Origin: Escherichia phage vB_VIPECOTH07
Length of the DNA: 44,205 nt
Strand: one strand, 5' to 3'
Sequence record: PQ417132.1
Shown here: positions 11,963-32,773 of the stretch, in pieces
How the letters are laid out: each line of letters opens with the position of its first letter
How positions within the stretch are numbered: position 1 is the stretch's first letter
Position numbers and translations under genes: made by a program
The notes under the pieces: generated by a model
Told to the model about the DNA's origin: nothing
Seen by the model: the letters and a program-made list of their open reading frames with translations, nothing else
The model's database searches: none

Positions 11963-12117
11963 CGAACCGTAAAGCGCGACTTCTCTTTATTAAATGTCAC
12001 CAGCCTTTTCGAGTAAGCAACTCGACTTGGCTGATTATATTCAACCGTAGCGGTGACACGTGCGCCTACAAGCGCAAAACGCGTAAAGTTAAATGGGGTG
12101 GGAGTTTAAGAGCATGA
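11959..12117 (+). CDS. hypothetical small basic protein (~52 aa)
   Basis: ATGA overlaps at both ends (11959 and 12114); MTNRKARLLFIKCHQPFRVSNSTWLIIFNRSGDTCAYKRKTRKVKW... Confidence 0.3.
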   Translation: MTNRKARLLFIKCHQPFRVSNSTWLIIFNRSGDTCAYKRKTRKVKWGGSLRA

Positions 12118-13355
12118 AACTAAAAGAACGAGGCGGCAATAATGATGTACACGCCTTACTGTCACCGTCAGGCGCTAAAAAGTGGCTGTCATGCGCTGCG
12201 TCGCTGGCGTGTGAAAAAGATATCCCTAACACGTCGGGTAAAGCCGCTGTATCAGGAACCGCCATGCACACCATAGCTGAGGTCCATCTCAACGCCTATA
12301 TACGCGGCACTGCGTTGCCGTTGGAGCGTGAAGTCGGCGCTTACGTGCTGGACGAGGGTAAAGGCCAGATTAAGGCGCTAATTAGCCAGATGAAAGGCGC
12401 GGTACTGATTACGGCTGACATGATTGAGCAGGTGCGCAAGTACACCGACTACTGCAAAGCGATTATCGACGTAGCGACTTACGCCAAGCTGGAAATGCGG
12501 GTAAATCTTACTGAGGTATTGCATCCGGGTTACGAAGGCGTTGAGACGTTCGGAACCGCTGACCTTGTTGCCGTTCAGGAACTGGCGAACACTGACGAGC
12601 ATATGCTCATTATCGGCGACCTGAAAACAGGACGGCATCATGTCGAAGCGAAAGAAAACAAGCAGCTTATGCTCTACGCTCTCGGTGTTTACCGCCGACT
12701 CAAGAGACGTTATAACATATCAGTAGTGCGCCTGGTCATCTTCCAGCCGTACGCCGGGGGCGCGTCGGAGTGGGACATCTCGGTTGAAGGTCTGGAACTG
12801 TTCGCTAAGTTCGCACAGAAACGCGCACTGTTAGCCCTTGATGCGTATTTCCGAGGCAAGAAGAACCTGAAAGCGTCGGACTTTAAGCCGTCTGTCGACG
12901 GTTGTCAGTGGTGTCGGTTCTCTGAACAGTGCGCAGCGCGTACAAAGACGGTTAATTCTGTACTTGCCGAAGAACTGGAGGACGACTTTGCGCTGGAACT
13001 TACGCCGGAGCAACTCGTAGCTGAATATGAGAAGTTGCCGTTGTTGCGCCAGCACATCGATAAGGTCGAAAAAGCTATGGCTGCTGCGTTGCATTCCGGT
13101 AAGAAAGTGCCAGGGTACAAGCTGGTGGAAGGTCGCCCAGGTAATCGTGCGTGGAAAGACGCAGAGAAAGTAGCAGAACTCTACGGCGACAAGCTGACTA
13201 AAGAAGTGCTCCTGACGCCGACCGAAGCGGTTAAAGTAATACCAGAAGAAGAACTGAAAGACTTCATCACACGTAAGCCGGGGACGCCATGCGTCACAAC
13301 AGCGGACGACAAACGTCCTGAGTGGAATAAGGTTAGTGAAGAAGATTTAGAATAA
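12114..13355 (+). CDS. PD-(D/E)XK exonuclease, Cas4/RecB-like with four-Cys cluster
   Basis: ADLVAV...IIGDLKTGRHH nuclease motifs; N-terminal WLSCAASLAC plus C-terminal CQWCRFSEQC match the Cas4-type Fe-S Cys pattern. Start moved to ATG 12114 (track 12093). Ends ...VSEEDLE. Confidence 0.7.
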   Translation: MKLKERGGNNDVHALLSPSGAKKWLSCAASLACEKDIPNTSGKAAVSGTAMHTIAEVHLNAYIRGTALPLEREVGAYVLDEGKGQIKALISQMKGAVLITADMIEQVRKYTDYCKAIIDVATYAKLEMRVNLTEVLHPGYEGVETFGTADLVAVQELANTDEHMLIIGDLKTGRHHVEAKENKQLMLYALGVYRRLKRRYNISVVRLVIFQPYAGGASEWDISVEGLELFAKFAQKRALLALDAYFRGKKNLKASDFKPSVDGCQWCRFSEQCAARTKTVNSVLAEELEDDFALELTPEQLVAEYEKLPLLRQHIDKVEKAMAAALHSGKKVPGYKLVEGRPGNRAWKDAEKVAELYGDKLTKEVLLTPTEAVKVIPEEELKDFITRKPGTPCVTTADDKRPEWNKVSEEDLE

Positions 13356-16975: not shown

Positions 16976-17179
16976 ATGAGAAAGTTAGGCCCGCACATCG
17001 TTAAGTACATGTACGAAAAATATGATGGCGACATTGTAACCGCATTGGAGGGATTAGTTGGCGCTGAATCTGTTTTAGATGATCTTGAATTTGACCGACT
17101 GTGCATATGTATAGACGAGGCAAAACGTAACGCACTGAATTATGTACTAGAAAACTACTGCACAGAGGAAGACGAATAA
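16976..17179 (+). CDS. hypothetical protein (acidic C-terminus ...TEEDE)
   Basis: ATG ORF with upstream GGAA; no motif. Confidence 0.45.
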   Translation: MRKLGPHIVKYMYEKYDGDIVTALEGLVGAESVLDDLEFDRLCICIDEAKRNALNYVLENYCTEEDE

Positions 17180-17373
17180 TGAATAAATACGAATATGACC
17201 GCAAACCAGCACGCGACATCGTACCCGGTGACATGATTTTCAACGTTAAGACACGCCAGCCTGTTGCCGTTGATACGGTGTTCGTCGAGTCGAACGGTAA
17301 ACTGGTTATCGAAGACGTAACTGGTAACGTTACAGCGTTTGGGCGTAAAGAGCTTGTTCTGGTGGCAAAATGA
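17179..17373 (+). CDS. hypothetical protein
   Basis: ATG overlaps upstream stop (TAATG). Confidence 0.45.
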   Translation: MNKYEYDRKPARDIVPGDMIFNVKTRQPVAVDTVFVESNGKLVIEDVTGNVTAFGRKELVLVAK

Positions 17374-18794
17374 GTAAGTTTCAAAGGCGCGAATATCAGA
17401 AGCTCATGACTTCGTTCATGCTGCAACACCCGCGCTGTAATATCTGGTGTGGCATGGGAGGGGGTAAAACCTCCTCTACTATGTGGGTGTTAAACCGCTT
17501 GTTCCGCAACGGGCAGCTTACAGAAGAGGACCGCGTGTTAATCCTCGCCCCGTTGCGTGTTGCGTCGGGTACGTGGCCTGCAGAACAAGAGAAATGGAAC
17601 TTCCCTTGTCTGCGTGTCGTCGATGCGACCGGTTCGGAGAAGCGCCGCATCGCGGCGCTGGAGTCAGACGCTAACGTGGTGTGCACTAACTACGAAGTTA
17701 TCGAGTGGCTAATTGACTACTACGGCAAAGACGACTGGCCTTTTACGGTTATCGTTGCCGATGAAAGCACGAAGCTTAAATCGTTCCGCAGCCGTTCGGG
17801 TGGTAGCAAGCGGGCAAAGGCGCTCAGCAAGGTTGCGTTCGGAAAGGTTAAGCGTTTCATCAACCTTACTGGTACACCGTCGCCAAACGGCCTCAAGGAC
17901 TTGTGGGGGCAGAACTGGTTTATCGACGCTGGCGAGCGACTCGGTTCATCGTACACAGCATTCACCGACCGCTGGTTTAACTCGGTACAGAAAGGTAAAT
18001 CGGCTATGGCCCGCGAGTATCATGCACGACCGGGTGCGGATAATGAGATTCATCAGAAGATGAAAGACATCAGCCTGACCATAGACCCTGCCGAGTGGTT
18101 TGGTTGTGAAGCGCCTGTTATCGTACCGGTTGAAATAGACCTACCGAAGAAGGCGCGTCAGGCGTACATAGATATGGAGGAGAAGTTATTCGCAGAACTG
18201 GAGAGCGGGGAAGTTGAAGCGGCTAACGCTGCGGCGAAGACCTCAAAGTGCTTGCAGATTGCATCTGGTGCCGTGTATGTGTCAGGGCCGGATGGCGAAG
18301 CGACCAAAGACTGGGAGAAAGTGCACGACACGAAACTGGATGCGCTCGAGTCGATTGTTGAGGAGTTGCAGGGTGCGCCGTTGCTGGTAGCCTATCAGTT
18401 TAAACACGAACTGGAGCGTATCCTTAAGCGATTCCCTCAGGCGCAGGCTTTTTCTAAGGGTGCGAAGGGTAATAAGCAGATGGAAGCGTGGAACCGTGGC
18501 GAAATCGAAATCTTATGCGTGCATCCCGCGTCAGCCGGTCATGGTTTGAATTTACAGGACGGCGGGCATCATCTGGCATTCATCTCGCAAGGCTGGAACC
18601 TTGAGCACTATTTGCAGGTTGTCGAGCGCATAGGCCCCGTACGCCAGAAACAGGCGGGTCACGAGCGCCCGGTGTTCCTTTATCACATCGTTGCTAAAGA
18701 CACTCTGGACGGGGTTGTCGCCGCGCGTACCGACGAGAAGAAATCGGTACAGGAAGAGTTGCTTAATTACATGAAGAGACGAGGTAAGAAATGA
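17370..18794 (+). CDS. superfamily 2 DNA helicase (SNF2/DEAD-like)
   Basis: Walker A CGMGGGKTSS, motif II VIVADESTKLKS, C-terminal helicase-domain motifs HPASAGHGLNLQDGGHHLAF. Confidence 0.75.
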   Translation: MSKFQRREYQKLMTSFMLQHPRCNIWCGMGGGKTSSTMWVLNRLFRNGQLTEEDRVLILAPLRVASGTWPAEQEKWNFPCLRVVDATGSEKRRIAALESDANVVCTNYEVIEWLIDYYGKDDWPFTVIVADESTKLKSFRSRSGGSKRAKALSKVAFGKVKRFINLTGTPSPNGLKDLWGQNWFIDAGERLGSSYTAFTDRWFNSVQKGKSAMAREYHARPGADNEIHQKMKDISLTIDPAEWFGCEAPVIVPVEIDLPKKARQAYIDMEEKLFAELESGEVEAANAAAKTSKCLQIASGAVYVSGPDGEATKDWEKVHDTKLDALESIVEELQGAPLLVAYQFKHELERILKRFPQAQAFSKGAKGNKQMEAWNRGEIEILCVHPASAGHGLNLQDGGHHLAFISQGWNLEHYLQVVERIGPVRQKQAGHERPVFLYHIVAKDTLDGVVAARTDEKKSVQEELLNYMKRRGKK

Positions 18795-19306
18795 TGGATT
18801 TCGAAGAGTTTCTACTTAAAGCTCATCTGCTGGCGCGTGGGTTTGACGCTGACCGTCTCCAGGTAGTCTTAGCCCCTGGAGTAGCTACGTTTTACCTGTG
18901 GGGGTTTGACGGTAGGCTTCGCGGATACCAGCATTACAAACCACATGCCGAAAAGAACTGTAAAAACCCTAAAGACGCGCGGTACTTTACCAGAACAACA
19001 AGGCCGTGTTTATGGGGGCTTGAGTATTTGCCGGAAAGCGGGGTGGTATTTGTTACCGAAAGCATATTCAAAGCCGTAGCCTTGATGAATTGCGGGTTCA
19101 ATGCTGTAAGCGCACTGGGGTCAAATATATCAACAGACCTACGGCAGCAAATGTCACTTTTGCCGTATGACTGGGTGTGCGCTGGCGACAATGATAAAGC
19201 TGGATTAAAGTTCAGCAAAACATTCACCAGAGGATTTGTATCTAACGACCTTGATGAACTTTGTGAAGAAGAAATAACGTATCTTGCGAGGAAATTTACC
19301 AGATGA
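18791..19306 (+). CDS. Toprim-domain protein (putative DnaG-type primase core)
   Basis: Conserved Glu in VFVTESIFKAVALMNCGF and DxD in VCAGDNDKAG match Toprim catalytic motifs. Confidence 0.5.
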   Translation: MMDFEEFLLKAHLLARGFDADRLQVVLAPGVATFYLWGFDGRLRGYQHYKPHAEKNCKNPKDARYFTRTTRPCLWGLEYLPESGVVFVTESIFKAVALMNCGFNAVSALGSNISTDLRQQMSLLPYDWVCAGDNDKAGLKFSKTFTRGFVSNDLDELCEEEITYLARKFTR

Positions 19307-19440
19307 ACATCATAGCTCCGATTCCAGCATTGCAAAAACGTATCAAGGAACTCGAAGAAGAGGTTCTGCGACTACGGCAGCAAAGAGACGCCGCTAATGC
19401 GCAACTGGCGTTTGTACTGGAGAAGTTATCAGAAGAGTAG
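19303..19440 (+). CDS. hypothetical small protein (~45 aa, coiled-coil-like)
   Basis: Hand-translated MNIIAPIPALQKRIKELEEEVLRLRQQRDAANAQLAFVLEKLSEE; last gene before the bidirectional terminator. Confidence 0.3.
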   Translation: MNIIAPIPALQKRIKELEEEVLRLRQQRDAANAQLAFVLEKLSEE

Positions 19441-19442
19441 AG

Positions 19443-19474
19443 AAAAGGCCCCGTTTGGGGCCTTAGTTTTATTT
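19443..19474. terminator. bidirectional rho-independent terminator between convergent modules
   Basis: AAGGCCCC-gttt-GGGGCCTT flanked by T-runs on both strands; separates the replication operon (+) from the tailspike (-). Confidence 0.7.
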
Positions 19475-22423
19475 CTCTTCTAGCGCTGCCAGCCTCTGCT
19501 CTAACTCACGCATCTTCTTACGCTGATACGCAATCTCTAGGAAGAACATCTGGTCTGCCCTAATCCCCCATCTGCCGCCGGGGGCTGTTATTTGTACGGT
19601 CTGACCATCTTCATCAACGCCATACGTAGCTTCAATTGAGTCGTAGCACAAGAAAGCATATTTACAGTCTGTAGAACCCTCTTCCATAAGCCCATGTTTG
19701 ACCAAGATGTCTCGCACATCTTGAGCTATCACGCCGAAGTGTATCCTTGCAGTGTCACCCTTGATTGCTAGGCTTTCAAGCCACTTAAAAGATATTACAT
19801 GTATATCTTCCCATGCGGTAAGGAGTTGTTGCTCAATTTCCTCTTTGTTCGTCTTAAGTGTACCGTCAGACGTGTTTATCGTACCGGTGGTCGCGTACAC
19901 CGTAGTCCACCTATTACCTGCCGAACCTAAAGACACTTGCGAGTCTAAGTAAGGAAGGAAATTGTCGTATGAGTAGAAGCCTCCTGACGCATACATAATA
20001 GCCCTGTTAGGCGTTGCATGGTTCGACCCGTACAGTTGCAGCAATGCACCGTCGGAACTGGATGCGCCATCACCGCCACTAACAATCAGTCGTTGAGCAG
20101 ATGGGGTTTTAGTCGGGACTGTTTTTGAAATCAGCCCGTAATCACCATCAAACCGTGCCCGCACGGCAGACTGTTGTGTGCCATCGTATTCCAACCCCGT
20201 TACACGCAGGGAGTACACGCTTATTTCATTGTCAAACGTCAAAGGTGCTTCTACATGACGGACACCATCTACACCCATTGCGACAGGTAGTGTACGGTTA
20301 GGAGTTGCTCCGTATTTGAAATCACGGGACACATACGGGTGGTCTTCAATCTTTATCCGGTAGCTATATAAGTCAGCCGGATGCCCATCATGCTTGTACC
20401 ATAACTTCGCACTGTTATCCCCTATGCTCCAGGGAGAGAAGAAGTCTTCCCCTCCAAAGATATAGTACAACCAGCCATCTTTAACACAGACAGAGCCGAC
20501 GCCGACGGCAGAGTTAACGATATGGCCCTGGTATATTTGGTCGGTAATATTAAACCACTGAACATCATCTAAAGATGAAGGCCATGACGACACATTAACT
20601 TTGCACATAAAGGTCCGTGGATACGAACCTTCATAGCGGCTGTCCGGCTCACCCCCTTCCCACTCGCCAAAGGCACGTTCTGTACCAAAGATGTAGAGAT
20701 AGTCACCTACTTTAGCGAACGGAAGATTGGAGTGATGTACATTGTTCGGAAATCGCAAGTAGCTCCAGTTTTGCCCAGAATCGGTGCTCATCGCCAGTGT
20801 AGCGCCAGGGGAAGTAGGTAATGTGCCGCGTGTGGTAAGGTAGAGCACACCTCCATAACTTTTCACGCACGGCTCAGAAGCGTTATCAGCGTATGCCTGA
20901 GCGACAGTGCGACGAACGAATACGCCTGGATTGTCATACACGTTACTAAAATACAAGACGCCAAGACGACGAGGGGACACATCGCCGTTGTGGTAGCCGA
21001 CAGCGATAGTGTAGTTAGTATCATCTATAACCGCAAAACTATGTGTCTCCGTGACACACAAATCAGCGTTAGTGGAGTATGCCACCCCCGGCAATTCGGT
21101 AATTTCCCACGGGCTGTCCCAGAATCGCGTTGCGAAGTTCCAGGTAACACCCGCATTGTTTATGGTGGAACTCGCAGGGCTTGAGAGCGTAACAGTGAAC
21201 GTATTTCGGTTAATTATAGACGCAACCGTCATATTACCCGATACGCCAGTTGCCGATGTATTAGAGAAGTTAACCGCATCTCCTGCTTTTAGGCCATGAT
21301 TTTCTATAACAATGGTAGCAGTAGTGGAGCCAGAACTAATAGTTATTCCGCCGGTTGGGTGTCTAAAATACGGCATTGGGCGTGACCAAAGTTCTGCCTT
21401 CTTCATCCGCATATTAGATAAGTAGCGGGTTTCTATAACCGCATATAATCGGTTGCCGCACGTACCCATGCTCATGCAGTGGTAATTAACTCTGTCCGCA
21501 GAAACACTAGCATTATAGTCAGCATGGATTGGAGTCAACCACTCAGGCATTGACCAAGTCTGCCCGTCGTCGCCAGAGCGAACCCAAGCTACATGTAAGT
21601 TTTGAACGCCATGTCGTTCGCCCGCCATAAACGGGGCGTAAATAACATGGTCGTAGACGAAAGTTTTATCCTGCGTCCATGCGTTGTAGAACGGGGTATC
21701 CGTCACCTTAGTTAGTGAGCTGTTAAAGAAGCCATCAGCTACATAAGTAAGCGGTTGCCCGGCTACGCGCTCGTAAACGAATGCAGCATTCTTAAATTTA
21801 CTAATGTCAGGTAATTGGGAAACTTTATAAGTCAAACCCCTGCCGTCTATAATCCAATTGTTGGGAGAAGCTGCTAATACATTAAAAATAGATTGAGTAT
21901 CATCAGTTACACCGTCGCCCACGGCGCCCCATGCGCGTGGGTCGTATTCGTCCTTCCATCGCGCCATATGTAAATCTGGGTACAGAATTGCACCGTTTAC
22001 ATCAGATATTTGCTGCCGCAGTATGACCGACCCGACGGGCTGCCACGCCCCATCTGCCACGCCACCGGTGGACTGCGGAGAAGACGACGCTGGGATAATT
22101 TTTGGTAGAGCACCCAACCAATAGTACCAATCCCCGTCACCGCCAGAGGACGACGGCCACAAAACTGCGGTGTTTCGGTCGTTAGCGGATAGTGTACCGC
22201 CTGACGTGAAATCAAAATCTGCCAGTTTAAAACCTGCGTCACGCAACACAGCCGGCAGTGTCTTCTGTGTCTGCCCCGTAACTGCGTTGGTCGCGTAATC
22301 AATATCTGCGCCTGCAGCTACACCGCCAGATTTACCGGTAATAACCTCAGCTTCGAAAATCTGGTGTTTCTTGGCGGTCTGTAAGTCCGCCAGGCTTAAA
22401 ACGTCACCGCATCCGCTTGACAT
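19469..22423 (-). CDS. tailspike with sialidase-like Asp-boxes and C-terminal intramolecular chaperone-like domain
   Basis: Two Asp-box motifs (SGDDGQTWS, STDSGQNWS); C-terminus ...INTSDGTLKTNKEEIEQQLL...ARIHFGVIAQDV resembles the self-cleaving chaperone domain of endosialidases and L-shaped fibres; last gene of the tail operon. Confidence 0.8.
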   Translation of the reverse strand: MSSGCGDVLSLADLQTAKKHQIFEAEVITGKSGGVAAGADIDYATNAVTGQTQKTLPAVLRDAGFKLADFDFTSGGTLSANDRNTAVLWPSSSGGDGDWYYWLGALPKIIPASSSPQSTGGVADGAWQPVGSVILRQQISDVNGAILYPDLHMARWKDEYDPRAWGAVGDGVTDDTQSIFNVLAASPNNWIIDGRGLTYKVSQLPDISKFKNAAFVYERVAGQPLTYVADGFFNSSLTKVTDTPFYNAWTQDKTFVYDHVIYAPFMAGERHGVQNLHVAWVRSGDDGQTWSMPEWLTPIHADYNASVSADRVNYHCMSMGTCGNRLYAVIETRYLSNMRMKKAELWSRPMPYFRHPTGGITISSGSTTATIVIENHGLKAGDAVNFSNTSATGVSGNMTVASIINRNTFTVTLSSPASSTINNAGVTWNFATRFWDSPWEITELPGVAYSTNADLCVTETHSFAVIDDTNYTIAVGYHNGDVSPRRLGVLYFSNVYDNPGVFVRRTVAQAYADNASEPCVKSYGGVLYLTTRGTLPTSPGATLAMSTDSGQNWSYLRFPNNVHHSNLPFAKVGDYLYIFGTERAFGEWEGGEPDSRYEGSYPRTFMCKVNVSSWPSSLDDVQWFNITDQIYQGHIVNSAVGVGSVCVKDGWLYYIFGGEDFFSPWSIGDNSAKLWYKHDGHPADLYSYRIKIEDHPYVSRDFKYGATPNRTLPVAMGVDGVRHVEAPLTFDNEISVYSLRVTGLEYDGTQQSAVRARFDGDYGLISKTVPTKTPSAQRLIVSGGDGASSSDGALLQLYGSNHATPNRAIMYASGGFYSYDNFLPYLDSQVSLGSAGNRWTTVYATTGTINTSDGTLKTNKEEIEQQLLTAWEDIHVISFKWLESLAIKGDTARIHFGVIAQDVRDILVKHGLMEEGSTDCKYAFLCYDSIEATYGVDEDGQTVQITAPGGRWGIRADQMFFLEIAYQRKKMRELEQRLAALEEK

Positions 22424-22435
22424 ATAGAGTCCTCT

Positions 22436-24991
22436 TTAATTAAAACCATTGCTGAATCCGTCGGAGAAACCGCTGCCGTATGGCGCTACGCCGTCGTATT
22501 TATAGAATCCGTCGTCATAGTTGTAGCCAGTAATCTTGACCGTGCGGTCGTCGCCCGGGTCGATTGAAGAAACAACTATCTTCTGAGCATTATGCCTTGC
22601 TTCGTTGCCGAATGAAAACTCAGTTTTTAGTGCGCTATTCCCCGTGTAGATTGCTTCTTCCGGCGCGGAGAGCATAATCACTTCGCGGTCGTGGCTTCCT
22701 TTGATAACGGAGATACTCTGTACAGAGCCGTCTCGCTTCTTGAGGATGATGGAGTGGTCATCGCCGGGGGTAAACGTAACCGGCTGCGACAGCGTCAGCG
22801 TAAGCCCATTAACGGCAACAACATAGCCGTCTTGTGGCGCAATACGCGAGCCTTTAACCACGCTGATTACGCCGCCGGGTGTAGCGAGCGCACCTTCTTC
22901 AGTAGCTTCGAACTCTACGACAACTTTACTTAACGCATTGCGCTGATATCGACGCCACGCAAGCCAGTACGCTTGCTGGTAGTTGCGCACGCCCTTCGAT
23001 TCGTATTCCTCAGTGTTTGCACCCAGTTCTTCCGGGATATAAATCGTTTCCTGTACGTTTGTATCCGGGTCGATGTACGAGAACGACAGGCTATCGTAGG
23101 TTGTCGAATCGTTGAACGTGCGGGTCCATTTCTCTGTACCGGTAGTTTTGCTGCGGTGGGTGAACACCATTTCAGGCCCAGCAACCGGACGGTCGAATCG
23201 CAGCATAATATCCGCACCTTTACGGTACGCGGTACAGAACACGGCTTCCGCTATAGTCTGAACAATGTCCTGCATCGTGGTGTCGTAGTCATCGAACGTG
23301 TAGCAGAACTGCCCCGCTAATTCACTGCCAAAATAGGACTCAATTTCTTCCTGCACGGCAAGCAACTTATCCATGTTTGCCGTTGTCAGTTCCAGATTGC
23401 CCACCGCCGGGTCGCGAGCCAGTCTGATTAGCGACTGCACGGCCTGAGTGTTTGGCGACATTACGGTATCGAATACCCCATTGCCGAGGTATTTGTAGCA
23501 CATCTCGGTCGCAATCATGCGCAGTTCAGGGTTGTCGATACTGGCGGCGCGTGGCGTCTGTTTACGGGAGCAATGTACGGTAGTTCGGTTGCCGTAGTGT
23601 GGGGTGGTGTCCAGTGACTGACCGTACAGGTTGATGAACGTTATCTCGTCGCTTACGGTACCGTCGTAGTCCTTGTCGAAATTCGTTATACGGCGCATAC
23701 GGGCACGGAAACGAGATGCGGTTGGCAACTGCCCGTAGATAGACGTACCGACGTAATCCGTGCTATTACCAGTAATCGTAGCCTGTACCGTGTAGATATC
23801 ACTCAACGGGTTACGCTGAGAGTCAATCATCTGGTACTGGAGTTCTACGGTTACGCTGGTGCGGTTATAGCCGCCGTCGTATTTGTAGAGGCCATTCTGC
23901 CCTGCGACGTTCGCGAGCACCCGGTCGACCTCTCCGCGAACCATGTAATACCAGTCCGTAAGAGATACGTCATATGTGTTGCTAGGACCAATAAACGTAT
24001 CTGAACGCTCTGTTAGTGTGTACGTCTGTCCGCTGGTCAACGCGGCCCAGTTAGACGCACCGTTTACGGCTAATCTTACTTCGAAGTCGTCGACGTATAA
24101 AACTTCAAACGAGCCGTTCAGGTTAGTGACGTCCTTAACGTCGAAATTGCTCAACACTGCGACATCACCGACACTAAGAAACTCAGAAAAAGCAGAGTCA
24201 CCCGACGGGTCATATAGGTAGCCGGTGGTCGAAATACGTTTGGCGGTTCCACCGGAGCTTGGGTTAGCCCCGATGTCGTTTGGCGCTTTCAGTACAATAC
24301 CGTCAACGTCGTCGTTGGAGTATGTCACATAGAGTTTCTGGTCGATGACGTCGCCGATTTGTAGTCGCGGCGATGCGGTGTTGTTCGGTGACGTATACGG
24401 CGCGTACACGGCAACAGAGGAACCTGTGATGTCGCTTATCAGGGTGTCGCCTTCCGTGACGCCATCGGCCTCAATATACAGATGTCCGCGCCCGGCGTCG
24501 TAGTACGAATACTCCAGCAAAGCACCAGTGGAGTTGAACGCTTTATACGTCTGCATAAGGTCGTTAGGGATTGTCTGCACAGTCCCGCAGATGTCATAAG
24601 AGCGCTCGTAAGGGCGTGGTTTGTTTGAGCGGTCCGTGAGGCTGTTATTTGGCGATGTTGTCTGGTTGTTAGTCGCCGTATAGTTGGCGTTTGCGGACAT
24701 GTTCAGGCCAAACAACTTAGCGATTGGCTTAAGGATAAAACCAAATACCTTACTAACTGCACCAAGCGCCCCGCTACCCGCACCCTCAATAATATGGTAC
24801 ACGGCGTCTTCGTCTTTAAGCGCTTCGAAGTCGTCTGTAACATCAGTATCATCGCCAATCTCGCCGAGGTAGACGCGCACAGGCACACCGTCCGGAATAC
24901 GGCTAACAACAAACTCCATCGGCATCCCGACGTGTTTTGTACGGTCGAAAGCGCCATCAGCGTTTCGCGAGTAGTGCAGGATTATCGCCAA
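22436..24991 (-). CDS. tail tip / host-specificity protein (lambda J-like)
   Basis: 851-aa protein directly after the K-like gene in a lambda-type tail order; size and position only. Confidence 0.55.
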   Translation of the reverse strand: MAIILHYSRNADGAFDRTKHVGMPMEFVVSRIPDGVPVRVYLGEIGDDTDVTDDFEALKDEDAVYHIIEGAGSGALGAVSKVFGFILKPIAKLFGLNMSANANYTATNNQTTSPNNSLTDRSNKPRPYERSYDICGTVQTIPNDLMQTYKAFNSTGALLEYSYYDAGRGHLYIEADGVTEGDTLISDITGSSVAVYAPYTSPNNTASPRLQIGDVIDQKLYVTYSNDDVDGIVLKAPNDIGANPSSGGTAKRISTTGYLYDPSGDSAFSEFLSVGDVAVLSNFDVKDVTNLNGSFEVLYVDDFEVRLAVNGASNWAALTSGQTYTLTERSDTFIGPSNTYDVSLTDWYYMVRGEVDRVLANVAGQNGLYKYDGGYNRTSVTVELQYQMIDSQRNPLSDIYTVQATITGNSTDYVGTSIYGQLPTASRFRARMRRITNFDKDYDGTVSDEITFINLYGQSLDTTPHYGNRTTVHCSRKQTPRAASIDNPELRMIATEMCYKYLGNGVFDTVMSPNTQAVQSLIRLARDPAVGNLELTTANMDKLLAVQEEIESYFGSELAGQFCYTFDDYDTTMQDIVQTIAEAVFCTAYRKGADIMLRFDRPVAGPEMVFTHRSKTTGTEKWTRTFNDSTTYDSLSFSYIDPDTNVQETIYIPEELGANTEEYESKGVRNYQQAYWLAWRRYQRNALSKVVVEFEATEEGALATPGGVISVVKGSRIAPQDGYVVAVNGLTLTLSQPVTFTPGDDHSIILKKRDGSVQSISVIKGSHDREVIMLSAPEEAIYTGNSALKTEFSFGNEARHNAQKIVVSSIDPGDDRTVKITGYNYDDGFYKYDGVAPYGSGFSDGFSNGFN

Positions 24992-30606: not shown

Positions 30607-31737
30607 ATGGCCCAGAAGAAAATAACCGACGAACAGTTACAGGAAGAATTGAACGCCGGGATGAAGAATGTAGACATCGCCCGTAAATACGGCATCTCAG
30701 ACCGAGTTATTCGTATCCGTAAAGCGAAGCTGGCTAAGAAAGGTGTAGGCCACGGGCGTGACGTTAGCCACCTTGTACCAGATGGCTACAAGATTAAAGG
30801 CACATCGTCGCTGGTTGATGAGTTCGGCAACACTAAGTTGCAATGGGTTAAGACCGACACCGATGCCGAACGTCAGGTCGAGTTGATGAAAGCCATAATC
30901 GAGGGCATGAAGTCGGAGATTACCCCCGTTGCTCCTGTTAAAGCCGTTCGCGCCAAACGGGACGACAAGCTACTCAACCTTTACACTGTGTCTGATTTCC
31001 ATCTCGGTATGCTGGCCTGGGCCGACGAGAGTGGCGACGACTGGGATATGAAGATTGCAGAAGACCTGTTCTCCCGTTGGTTCGATGCGGCATTCCAGAA
31101 AGCACCGGATGCGGGGACTGGGGTTATTAACCTGCTGGGCGACTTCGCGCACTTCGATAGTCTGGTTGCCGTTACACCTGCAAGCGGTCACGCCCTTGAC
31201 GCCGACACCCGTTACCAGAAACTTGTCCGCTACATGATTCGCATGGTCCGCCGTGTTGTCGATATGGCGCTGGTTAAGCATAAAAATGTTCGCTTGCTTA
31301 TCGTGCAAGGGAATCACGACGAAAGTGGCATGATTTGGTTGGCTGAGATGTTCAGTACGCTGTATGACAATGAGCCGCGTGTGTTCGTCGATACGTCACC
31401 GGATGTTTACAAGATGGTGCAACACGGCAAAACGACGCTGTTCTTCCATCACGGGCATAAAGCACGATTCGACGCTATTGAACCTGTTATGATTGCCAAG
31501 TTCCGTAAAGCGTTCGGCGAGAGTGTTTACAGCTACGCCCACGTAGGCCATCTGCACCACCAGAAGATTGTAGAAAGCCGTAACATGATTGTTGAGCAAC
31601 ACCGCACCTTAGCGGCTAAAGACGCCTACGCCTCCCGCGGAGGTTGGATGTCGGGCCGTAGTGCAAATGTAATTACTTATAGCGCCGAATTTGGCGAGGT
31701 CGCACGTTTAACTATTTCACCGGAGATGCTGGGATGA
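30607..31737 (+). CDS. HTH-fused calcineurin-like metallophosphoesterase (SbcD/Mre11-like motifs)
   Basis: N-terminal HTH KNVDIARKYGISDRVIRIRK; phosphoesterase motifs VSDFHLG, LGDFAHFD, QGNHDE, FFHHGH, VGHLHH. Confidence 0.75.
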   Translation: MAQKKITDEQLQEELNAGMKNVDIARKYGISDRVIRIRKAKLAKKGVGHGRDVSHLVPDGYKIKGTSSLVDEFGNTKLQWVKTDTDAERQVELMKAIIEGMKSEITPVAPVKAVRAKRDDKLLNLYTVSDFHLGMLAWADESGDDWDMKIAEDLFSRWFDAAFQKAPDAGTGVINLLGDFAHFDSLVAVTPASGHALDADTRYQKLVRYMIRMVRRVVDMALVKHKNVRLLIVQGNHDESGMIWLAEMFSTLYDNEPRVFVDTSPDVYKMVQHGKTTLFFHHGHKARFDAIEPVMIAKFRKAFGESVYSYAHVGHLHHQKIVESRNMIVEQHRTLAAKDAYASRGGWMSGRSANVITYSAEFGEVARLTISPEMLG

Positions 31738-32219
31738 AAGATATTGTAATTTTCGATTTAGACGGGACATTGGCGGATGGGACACATCGTTTGCACCTGC
31801 TGCCGAAAGATAACTACAACGAAACATGGGCGTGGAAGCCCTTTAACATGGCGTGCAAAGATGATGAACCAATTAGAGATAACATAGAACTGTGTAACGC
31901 CCTCAATCGTCGCTATGCCGTTATCATTTTAACGGGCCGTAGTGATGATGCAGAAAAAGAAACCAGAATGTGGTTGCAGCGCCACCGCGTCGAATTTTAT
32001 CAGCTAATCATGCGCAGCAAACACGACAACAGAAAAGACATCGTAATTAAAGAAGAGGTGTTGCGTGCTATTGGGCTGGAAAGAATCTTGTGTGCATTCG
32101 ACGACTCGCCAGCGGTAATAAAGCATTTCCGCGAACTCGGCATAACCACTCACGCGGTTACTGAATACGACTGTAACGGGAACTCTACACACTTAAAACC
32201 ACATGGGAGCGATAAATAA
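31734..32219 (+). CDS. HAD-superfamily phosphatase (polynucleotide 3'-phosphatase-like)
   Basis: Motif I IVIFDLDGTLADG; remaining pattern (ILTGRSDDAEKE...NRKDIVIKEEV...AFDDSPAVI) resembles the phosphatase domain of phage polynucleotide kinase-phosphatase as recalled. Confidence 0.65.
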   Translation: MKDIVIFDLDGTLADGTHRLHLLPKDNYNETWAWKPFNMACKDDEPIRDNIELCNALNRRYAVIILTGRSDDAEKETRMWLQRHRVEFYQLIMRSKHDNRKDIVIKEEVLRAIGLERILCAFDDSPAVIKHFRELGITTHAVTEYDCNGNSTHLKPHGSDK

Positions 32220-32773
32220 TGGCTAAGGTAATTATTCTTAATGGCCCTGCGGGTTGCGGGAAAGACACGCTTGCTATGGCACTGGTAGAAATGGGCTTTG
32301 CGAAAGGAACTACCAGTTTCAAGAATCCGATGTTCAATATCGCTATGGCTGCGTTAGGCCCGGATGCTTACCACGAGTTTCTCGACGGCTACGACGACCG
32401 GGCCAGGAAAGAAAAGCCAGAAGGTTTCCTTAATGGGTTGTCGCGCCGTCGGTTCATGATTGCTATCTCTGAACAATTCATTAAACCGGCCCTCGGCAGC
32501 GATTATTTCGGTAAATATCTCGCTGAAAACTTGCCTGACGGCGACGAAGTTTTTGTAGTGTCCGACGGTGGATTCGCCAGTGAAGTGGTCCCTATCGTCG
32601 CCGCTGGGCATGACGTAAGAATTGTTCGCTTGCACAGAGACGGCTATACGTTTGAAGGGGACAGCCGTGGCTATCTGTATGGCGTTGATGGTGTAAAAGA
32701 TTACGACACCTACATCATACCAGGTGACGTTAAATCGAACGTTATAGACATTGCTTTAAAATTAGGTTTGTAG
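32219..32773 (+). CDS. P-loop kinase (dNMP kinase-like or polynucleotide kinase-like)
   Basis: Walker A GPAGCGKDT; GKD variant and downstream pattern recall phage dNMP kinases. Confidence 0.6.
   Translation: MAKVIILNGPAGCGKDTLAMALVEMGFAKGTTSFKNPMFNIAMAALGPDAYHEFLDGYDDRARKEKPEGFLNGLSRRRFMIAISEQFIKPALGSDYFGKYLAENLPDGDEVFVVSDGGFASEVVPIVAAGHDVRIVRLHRDGYTFEGDSRGYLYGVDGVKDYDTYIIPGDVKSNVIDIALKLGL

Follow-up and report, generated by a model that had tools for sequence, protein, structure and literature searches.

A probable 63D-type endosialidase tailspike with a predicted self-cleaving chaperone domain in the Kagunavirus genome of Escherichia phage vB_VIPECOTH07

The window analysed here, a 44,205-nucleotide stretch of DNA from Escherichia phage vB_VIPECOTH07 (PQ417132.1), contains a gene whose product, judging from its sequence, is almost certainly an endo-alpha-2,8-sialidase (endo-N-acetylneuraminidase) of the phage endosialidase family (CAZy family GH58), serving as the receptor-destroying tailspike of a Kagunavirus siphophage that depends on the K1 capsule. 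This enzyme has been known for a long time as the 63D-type endosialidase (AB015437); near-identical copies of it have been cloned from sister phages and tested, and its significance is practical only, with no new biological question opened. The sequence shows the family, the order of the domains, the conserved key residues, the near-identity to tested alleles and the limits of the cassette, and it contains nothing that speaks against this reading; for this allele, we infer the cleavage, the trimer state, the enzymatic activity and the host range. The gene itself is as follows.

19469..22423, minus strand: complete endosialidase tailspike precursor gene, 984 aa, predicted 108.1 kDa (open reading frame, Pfam, PDB and nucleotide identity); ATG start, stop codon at 19469..19471

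An earlier sequence-only reading had called this open reading frame a 984-aa tailspike; the coordinates it gave are exact, and both of the Asp-boxes it named (SGDDGQTW and STDSGQNW) are present. Its prediction of a capsule depolymerase that possibly degrades polysialic acid is well supported as to function by the endosialidase Pfam domains, by 79% and 53% identity to structurally characterised enzymes, by conserved residues and by the behaviour of JSSK01 ORF40, all detailed below; what it missed is that 63D-type endosialidases have long been known. The capsule-dependent host range that it predicted likewise agrees with the closest phages, K1G, K1H and JSSK01, which are described as "K1-dependent" (PMC11641727, PMC3990542).

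The identification goes far beyond the Asp-boxes, since the protein matches the endosialidase family over its full length, one domain after another. All four endosialidase-specific Pfam models match end to end, with scores of 128-742 bits, and are followed by Peptidase_S74, the order being canonical and the scores exceeding the curated cutoffs.

21929..22423, minus strand: N-terminal anchor module, aa 1-165, holding Tail_spike_N (PF18668, aa 97-131, E 1e-13)
21725..21925, minus strand: endosialidase N-terminal extension (End_N_terminal), aa 167-233 (PF12218, E 9.1e-38, profile 1-67 of 67)
20345..21724, minus strand: catalytic six-bladed beta-propeller (End_beta_propel), aa 234-693 (PF12217, E 1.7e-223, profile 1-367 of 367)
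21125..21373, minus strand: beta-barrel (End_beta_barrel), aa 351-433 (PF12195, E 7.1e-42, profile 1-83 of 83)
19871..20344, minus strand: stalk/tailspike domain (End_tail_spike), aa 694-851 (PF12219, E 3e-74, profile 1-160 of 160)
19472..19870, minus strand: intramolecular chaperone/self-cleaving domain, aa 852-984, 15.2 kDa (PF13884; 3gw6, 3gud, 4uw8, 7y5s)

The anchor module, which also matches the tailspike N-domains of PDB entries 9vvr, 4oj5 and 5w6h, presumably holds the spike on the tail tip of the siphovirus. The beta-barrel match is nested within that of the propeller; in endoNF this barrel is a polysialic-acid-binding, lectin-like unit, and it may have the same role here. The stalk is predicted to be a trimerisation domain of the triple-beta-helix type, with T851 as the mature C-terminus, and the Peptidase_S74 match that follows it covers aa 852-912 (E 6e-13, 49.3 bits against a cutoff of 22, profile 1-58 of 58).

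The closest relatives of the gene are all annotated as endosialidases and have K1 hosts, with nucleotide identities of 97% to BUCT825 and JSSK01, 96% to 63D (AB015437), 95.8% to K1G and 94.5% to K1H. At the protein level identity is 96.6% to 63D and 97.6% to JSSK01, whose annotated orthologues are also 984 aa long. The 63D sialidase ("Phage #D") and the alleles of K1G, K1H, JSSK01, BUCT825 and vB_EcoS_XY1 share their length, domain order and genomic position with the present tailspike; they differ from it by 26-33 substitutions, about half of which fall in the discarded chaperone domain, and every mapped catalytic or autoproteolytic residue is left unchanged. The review literature, citing Machida et al. 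2000, has the 63D enzyme as an endo-N-acetylneuraminidase (PMC5380687), and recombinant JSSK01 ORF40 has been reported to degrade the K1 capsule and to locate to the tail end (PMC11641727). The window as a whole is a Kagunavirus genome, with 93-94% coverage at 94-96% identity to vB_EcoS_XY1, and its positions 1-22100 align to K1G and K1H with 74-75% coverage at 91-92% identity. Nucleotide similarity, synteny with JSSK01 and an endosialidase as the last tail gene all place it in the K1-dependent subgroup of Kagunavirus (Guernseyvirinae), and K1-dependent phages belonging to different taxa all carry an endosialidase tailspike (PMC3990542).

Two structurally characterised endosialidases frame the comparison further afield. 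The endosialidase gp143 of phi92 (endoN92; 4hiz) is 79% identical over aa 166-852 (E=0 over 166-851), has the same catalytic residues and is identical around the cleavage site (GTINT/SDGTLKT); however, its attachment module is unrelated, serving a myovirus baseplate rather than a siphovirus tail tip, and its chaperone domain is longer by 29 aa in the hairpin region. The mechanistic prototype, endoNF of K1F (1v0e, 3gvl; E about 1e-228), is 53% identical over aa 166-852 and 48.5% identical in the chaperone, and shares the fold units, namely the N-extension, the propeller with its inserted barrel, the stalk and the self-cleaving chaperone, but it carries a T7-like N-terminal adaptor where the present tailspike has a siphovirus anchor, and the residue following the cleavage-site Ser is Asn instead of Asp. 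The greater proximity to phi92 raises the possibility, which we regard as tentative and rather unlikely, that this same enzyme has a broader specificity, cutting both alpha-2,8 (K1) and alternating alpha-2,8/alpha-2,9 (K92) polymers and conferring a K1 plus K92 host range. Both polymers are reported as substrates of phi92 gp143 (phi92 record; a 2026 paper, PMC13450770), and the stalk polysialic-acid-site residue Q853 of endoNF is replaced by Leu in the tailspike and phi92 alike. However, for the 95-97% identical phages every host on record is either a K1 strain or an unspecified E. coli, with K92 listed for none, and in the JSSK01 paper K92 is merely speculated on (PMC11641727). Were K92 polymer also depolymerised, the "K1-dependent" siphophages would be polysialic-acid-dependent phages with an unreported K92 host range.

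Self-cleavage of the C-terminus, which the sequence-only reading had also predicted, is consistent with conservation of the autoproteolytic residues S852, K857 and R838, and the chaperone-like domain that it put at about 130 aa measures 133 aa (852-984); besides the Peptidase_S74 match there is one to 3gw6, the stalk-plus-chaperone structure of endoNF, which aligns to aa 756-984 (E 2.8e-56). The Ser/Lys dyad of endoNF, S911 and K916, corresponds to S852, the nucleophile, which is preceded by Thr, and to K857, the base, five residues later. R838, in a conserved N-R-W/F motif of the final stalk strand, precedes S852 by 14 residues, the spacing that Arg1250 has in T5 pb1. In both T5 pb1 and K1F it is the Thr-Ser bond that is cut, the Ser being lost with the chaperone (PMC4690869), and the chain in 4hiz terminates at the aligned ...GTINT. 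The scissile bond is therefore predicted, by homology, at the following codons.

19868..19873, minus strand: scissile-bond codons, predicted T851/S852 (phi92 mat_peptide annotation and alignment)

The earlier proposal of a cut near INTS/DG was one residue off: S852/D853 was rejected in favor of T851/S852 (INT/SDG) on the grounds of the 4hiz chain end, the phi92 mat_peptide and the published cleavages (PMC4690869). The serine would accordingly depart with the 15-kDa chaperone, and the predicted products are of 92.9 kDa and 15.2 kDa. Other carriers of the Peptidase S74 chaperone include T5 pb1 (4uw8), whose chaperone is likewise about 133 aa long, the GA-1 neck appendage (3gud), the phage fibre 7y5s and eukaryotic MYRF. 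The S74 fibres share the Thr-Ser scissile bond, the Ser-x4-Lys dyad, the trans Arg 14 residues upstream and the C-terminal position; however, their chaperones stand behind non-sialidase passengers, and similarity to the tailspike is confined to its last ~160 residues.

Within the gene it is the chaperone domain that diverges most, with 88% amino acid identity to JSSK01 and 63D. At the DNA level it is 91-93% identical to all 21 known Kagunavirus alleles, with the catalytic Ser/Lys and the trans Arg intact, and no chaperone allele closer than 93% was found in any phage record. Patch recombination of this domain from a phi92-like donor was considered and rejected, as the tailspike agrees with phi92 at only 3 of the 15 divergent positions, whereas 63D agrees with phi92 at 5.

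These features allow a mechanism to be proposed in which the 108-kDa precursor trimerises, its folding nucleated by the 133-aa C-terminal intramolecular chaperone. Once the triple-beta-helix stalk has formed, R838 of the neighbouring chain and K857 would activate S852 for attack on the T851-S852 bond, freeing the 15-kDa chaperone and leaving a stable mature subunit of 93 kDa. The trimer, fixed to the tail tip through its N-terminal ~115-165 residues, would then cut polysialic acid with its beta-propeller (E517, R532, R583 and H271) while sites in the beta-barrel and stalk hold the polymer, so that the virion may tunnel through the K1 capsule down to the outer membrane. It is from this cleavage of polysialic acid that a host range limited to polysialic-acid-encapsulated E. 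coli would follow. A different oligomeric state has been put forward for the 63D enzyme (96.6% identical), which is given as "108/tetramer", an exception, in a review citing Machida et al. 2000 (PMC5380687), and the mature protein could by analogy be a homotetramer instead of the canonical trimer. This seems very improbable, as the crystal entry of the 79% identical phi92 enzyme (4hiz) has three chains, the stalk and chaperone are of the triple-beta-helix type, and auto-cleavage requires the neighbouring-chain Arg of a trimer; the 63D claim probably stems from sizing of an elongated protein.

In practical terms, the 63D-type tailspike classes the phage as a K1-capsule-dependent Kagunavirus. 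Its predicted hosts are ExPEC, neonatal-meningitis and APEC strains with a polysialic-acid capsule, and the predicted route of resistance is capsule loss. The phage and its enzyme are candidates for therapy, for capsule typing and as reagents for removal of polySia, uses that are under exploration for near-identical alleles (PMC11641727).

The propeller carries the two Asp-boxes and the residues on which the catalytic assignment turns.

21554..21577, minus strand: Asp-box 1, SGDDGQTW, aa 283-290, a motif also present at the aligned position of endoNF and endoN92
20765..20788, minus strand: Asp-box 2, STDSGQNW, aa 546-553, aligned with SRDIGQTW of endoNF

Both boxes align with those of endoNF and phi92 endoN, and no other stretch of the tailspike fits S-x-D-x-G-x-x-[WFY]; composition predicts 0.06 matches per protein, and at least two occurred in only 38 of 20,000 shuffles. 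Stummeyer and colleagues reportedly assigned, in 2005, a catalytic role to Glu581, Arg596 and Arg647 of endoNF, plus His350. Aligned, H350, E581, R596 and R647 correspond to H271, E517, R532 and R583, and are conserved in the tailspike, 63D, phi92 and K1F. Inactive endosialidase mutants that still bind are a familiar laboratory tool, and the spike might in principle be a catalytically dead pseudo-enzyme that only adsorbs to polysialic acid; this is very improbable, however, given that all of the mapped active-site residues are conserved and that aa 166-851 differ from JSSK01 ORF40, which is reportedly active, at only 5 of 686 positions (99.3% identical). Least credible of all is a classical exo-sialidase of the bacterial or viral neuraminidase type, which the two Asp-boxes and the beta-propeller would allow but which is refuted at the level of sequence, as Pfam BNR_2 (PF13088) reaches 15.5 bits where the cutoff is 31.4 and covers one Asp-box only, and as a search of the whole tailspike for RIP and [FYW]R[IVL]P found no F/Y-R-I-P motif.

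At the same locus, the Kagunavirus-type phage EcoPhCCP1 has a non-sialidase tail spike of 663 aa whose anchor is 72% identical over aa 1-160, and in EcoPhCCP1-type sister phages the flanking genes are 88-92% identical and a related chaperone domain is present (42% over 821-934). The enzymatic body of these spikes, however, is a wholly different cassette, and their carriers include K1-independent phages. DNA homology to EcoPhCCP1 stops at window position 22083 and restarts at the stop codon (19471). The tailspike thus combines a Kagunavirus-specific N-terminal anchor with an endosialidase cassette that is shared horizontally. As in JSSK01, its gene follows that of the tail-tip protein and closes the tail module; it is bounded by two local signals.

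22430..22437 (22437..22430 as read), minus strand: ribosome-binding site AAAGAGGA, 6 nt 5' of the ATG (sequence read)
19445..19464, no strand: GC-rich hairpin AAGGCCCC-(4-nt loop)-GGGGCCTT, 3' of the tailspike stop codon

A promoter scan of the tailspike gene region returned 3 sites against 4.8 expected in shuffled sequence, and hence no excess. The tailspike gene probably shares a transcript with the tail genes, because its ribosome-binding site overlaps the stop codon of the tail-tip gene upstream. The hairpin sits between the convergent tailspike gene and plus-strand replication genes and, on a consensus match only, is likely a bidirectional terminator.

The tailspike gene predicted in the sequence-only reading, an ORF at window 19469..22423 on the minus strand that begins with ATG and encodes 984 aa, was borne out at exactly these coordinates. 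A strong ribosome-binding site (AAAGAGGA) lies 6 nt 5' of its ATG and shares bases with the stop codon of the tail-tip gene, and a GC-rich hairpin (19445..19464) lies 3' of its own stop codon, before the convergent plus-strand replication genes. Both Asp-boxes on which a sialidase fold had been proposed occur in the protein, SGDDGQTW spanning aa 283-290 and STDSGQNW spanning aa 546-553, and are the only matches to the pattern S-x-D-x-G-x-x-[WFY] in the whole protein; 0.06 matches per protein are expected by composition, and two or more occurred in only 38 of 20,000 shuffles. The likeness to endosialidases reaches well past two short motifs. A Pfam search of the protein returned the following domains in canonical order, every match spanning the whole profile:

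aa 97-131, Tail_spike_N (E 1e-13)
aa 167-233, End_N_terminal (E 9.1e-38)
aa 234-693, End_beta_propel (E 1.7e-223)
aa 351-433, End_beta_barrel, nested in the propeller (E 7.1e-42)
aa 694-851, End_tail_spike (E 3e-74)
aa 852-912, Peptidase_S74, 'chaperone of endosialidase' (E 6e-13)

Among solved structures, the phi92 endosialidase (4hiz) matched aa 166-851 with E=0, entries for endoNF, the phage K1F endosialidase and mechanistic prototype (1v0e, 3gvl, and related), matched at E about 1e-228, and 3gw6, an endoNF stalk-plus-chaperone construct, matched aa 756-984 (E 2.8e-56); further matches were to chaperone domains belonging to other fibres (GA-1 3gud, T5 pb1 4uw8, and 7y5s). In a four-way alignment, identity across aa 166-852 was 79.1% to phi92 and 52.9% to K1F, and PHROGs placed the protein in tail-spike families. 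A classical exosialidase was ruled out, as the generic sialidase model BNR_2 scored 15.5 bits against the protein in Pfam, under its 31.4-bit cutoff, and the F/YRIP motif was absent from it; the protein therefore belongs to the phage endosialidase family. The endoNF active site is said, from work by Stummeyer and colleagues in 2005, to be formed by His350, Glu581, Arg596, and Arg647; these align with tailspike H271, E517, R532, and R583, kept in all four aligned proteins (the query, 63D, phi92, and K1F). In the stalk polySia site of endoNF, R837 and S848 are kept as R778 and S789, and Q853 is replaced by Leu (L794), likewise in phi92. The protein is a textbook 63D-type endosialidase tailspike.

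Such a tailspike is already known, near-identical alleles having been experimentally characterized. DNA identity to the gene is 97.3% for the 'endo-N-acetylneuraminidase' of phage BUCT825, 97.0% for that of JSSK01, 96.0% for AB015437 ('Phage #D gene for endo-N-acetylneuraminidase', source of the 63D enzyme), and 95.8% and 94.5% for K1G and K1H, both labelled 'tailspike 63D sialidase'. At least 80% of the gene is covered by 20 nucleotide records, whose recorded hosts are E. coli, many O18:K1:H7 and one entered as E. coli K1. Protein identity is 96.6% to 63D and 97.6% to JSSK01, whose endosialidase tailspike, ORF40, differs by 26 substitutions, just 5 of them within aa 166-851 (99.3% identity there). 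ORF40 is reported to have been expressed and located by antibodies at the tail end, and the recombinant enzyme to degrade K1 capsule; JSSK01, K1G, and K1H are classed there as K1-dependent phages (PMC11641727). The 63D enzyme is listed in reviews among the best-studied endo-N-acetylneuraminidases (PMC5380687), and endosialidase tailspikes are common to all K1-dependent phages, across different taxa (PMC3990542). The proposal of a sialidase-type capsule depolymerase with a self-cleaving chaperone is therefore supported by Pfam, structure matches, conserved residues, and near-identical tested alleles.

The C-terminal chaperone-like domain of that proposal, predicted to be self-cleaving, was confirmed; the suggested cut at INTS/DG was not, and within INTSDGTLK (aa 849-857) three homology-based lines place the predicted scissile bond one residue earlier, between T851 and S852. 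In the GenBank entry for phi92, the mature peptide is annotated to end at ...GTINT and the chaperone domain to start at SDGTLKT, a sequence that is the same in the tailspike. The last residues of the crystallised mature phi92 enzyme (4hiz) align with tailspike ...GTINT. In T5 pb1, the cut falls at the Thr1263-Ser1264 bond and the chaperone carries the Ser away, 'the same as observed for K1F' (PMC4690869). The nucleophile/base pair of endoNF, Ser911/Lys916, aligns with S852/K857. Arg1250 of T5 pb1 acts from the adjacent chain, such that cleavage occurs only once the trimer is correctly folded (PMC4690869); its counterpart is R838, 14 residues upstream of S852 within a conserved N-R-W/F motif. 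The 108.1-kDa precursor would yield products of 92.9 kDa (aa 1-851) and 15.2 kDa (aa 852-984).

One review gives the 63D enzyme as homotetrameric (PMC5380687), but a trimer is far more likely for the mature tailspike, given that its homologues 4hiz and endoNF are trimeric and that the cleavage mechanism depends on a trimer. The phi92 endosialidase, which is nearer to the tailspike than endoNF is, has been described as acting on K1 and K92 polymers (PMC13450770; also the phi92 record). By analogy, Kagunavirus endosialidases might also act on the K92 polymer, the only mildly novel reading left and a rather unlikely one.

Across Kagunavirus alleles, no part of the gene varies more than the chaperone domain (window 19472..19870, minus strand): its protein identity to JSSK01 and 63D is 88%, and its nucleotide identity to each of the 21 known alleles is 91-93%, compared with about 97-98% for most of the remaining gene. 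At 133 aa it is shorter in the hairpin region than that of phi92, which is 29 aa longer. A phi92-like donor patch found no sign in its favour, since only 3 of 15 divergent positions are phi92-like. As the chaperone is discarded after folding, we infer that its variation is likely without effect on specificity.

Modularity was addressed by comparing the region with its counterpart in EcoPhCCP1, a sister phage that carries a non-endosialidase spike of 663 aa. Homology between the two DNAs (88%) covers the upstream tail genes and continues within the spike gene to window 22083 (about codon 114), is then lost, and returns, now at 92%, precisely from the stop codon (19471); the N-terminus in common extends to aa 160 (72% protein identity). 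Similarity to endosialidases of myoviruses (phi92, phAPEC8) and podoviruses (CUS-3 and others) begins at aa 133-135. The protein is thus a lineage-specific module, presumably for tail attachment, joined to an endosialidase-plus-chaperone cassette that is shared horizontally. Its N-terminal module is similar to N-domains of other solved tailspikes (9vvr, 4oj5, 5w6h, and others).

The whole 44.2-kb window is a Kagunavirus (Guernseyvirinae) siphophage genome: matches to vB_EcoS_XY1 cover 93-94% of each half at 94-96% identity, and K1G and K1H match the first half (1-22100) over 74-75% at 91-92%. The minus-strand tail module ends with the tailspike gene, in the order tape measure, DUF1833 protein, large tail-tip protein (22436..24991), and spike, identical in JSSK01. 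The mechanical call of the tail-tip ORF (minus strand) begins at TTG and gives 851 aa; the JSSK01 orthologue has 827 aa, so the true start is probably the ATG at 24919 (M25). Large as it is, this protein had no Pfam match.

On the other side, a 45-aa ORF (MNIIAPIPALQKRIKELEEEVLRLRQQRDAANAQLAFVLEKLSEE; 19303..19440, plus strand) lies between a Toprim gene and the bidirectional hairpin, and is kept, labelled hypothetical, in JSSK01 (JSSK01_41) and EcoPhCCP1 (92% nt). The Toprim-like primase fragment gene (18791..19306, plus strand; 171 aa; Toprim_2 E 9.6e-5) is also in JSSK01, whereas EcoPhCCP1 has just a 186-nt hypothetical ORF in its place, so an indel hotspot directly adjoins the tailspike cassette. 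In JSSK01 (12047..12730), the SNF2-type helicase gene directly borders one for a DNA cytosine methyltransferase; the window helicase (17370..18794) is instead neighboured by a pair of small ORFs (64 and 67 aa; 16976..17373, plus strand), and the gene listings suggest that accessory content beside the helicase may differ. An island of three plus-strand ORFs (30607..32773) interrupts the minus-strand structural module and encodes a 376-aa protein whose weak match to Metallophos_2 (E 2.6e-4) stays below threshold, a 161-aa HAD-type PNKP phosphatase domain (E 1.5e-19), and a 184-aa protein with no Pfam match; 'metallophosphoesterase' or 'DNA repair exonuclease' is annotated in the matched genome half of relatives. 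The island might serve in the repair of nucleic-acid ends or in anti-defence. A search of the whole window found no tRNA or tmRNA genes, and across it the GC skew changes sign with the gene-orientation blocks.
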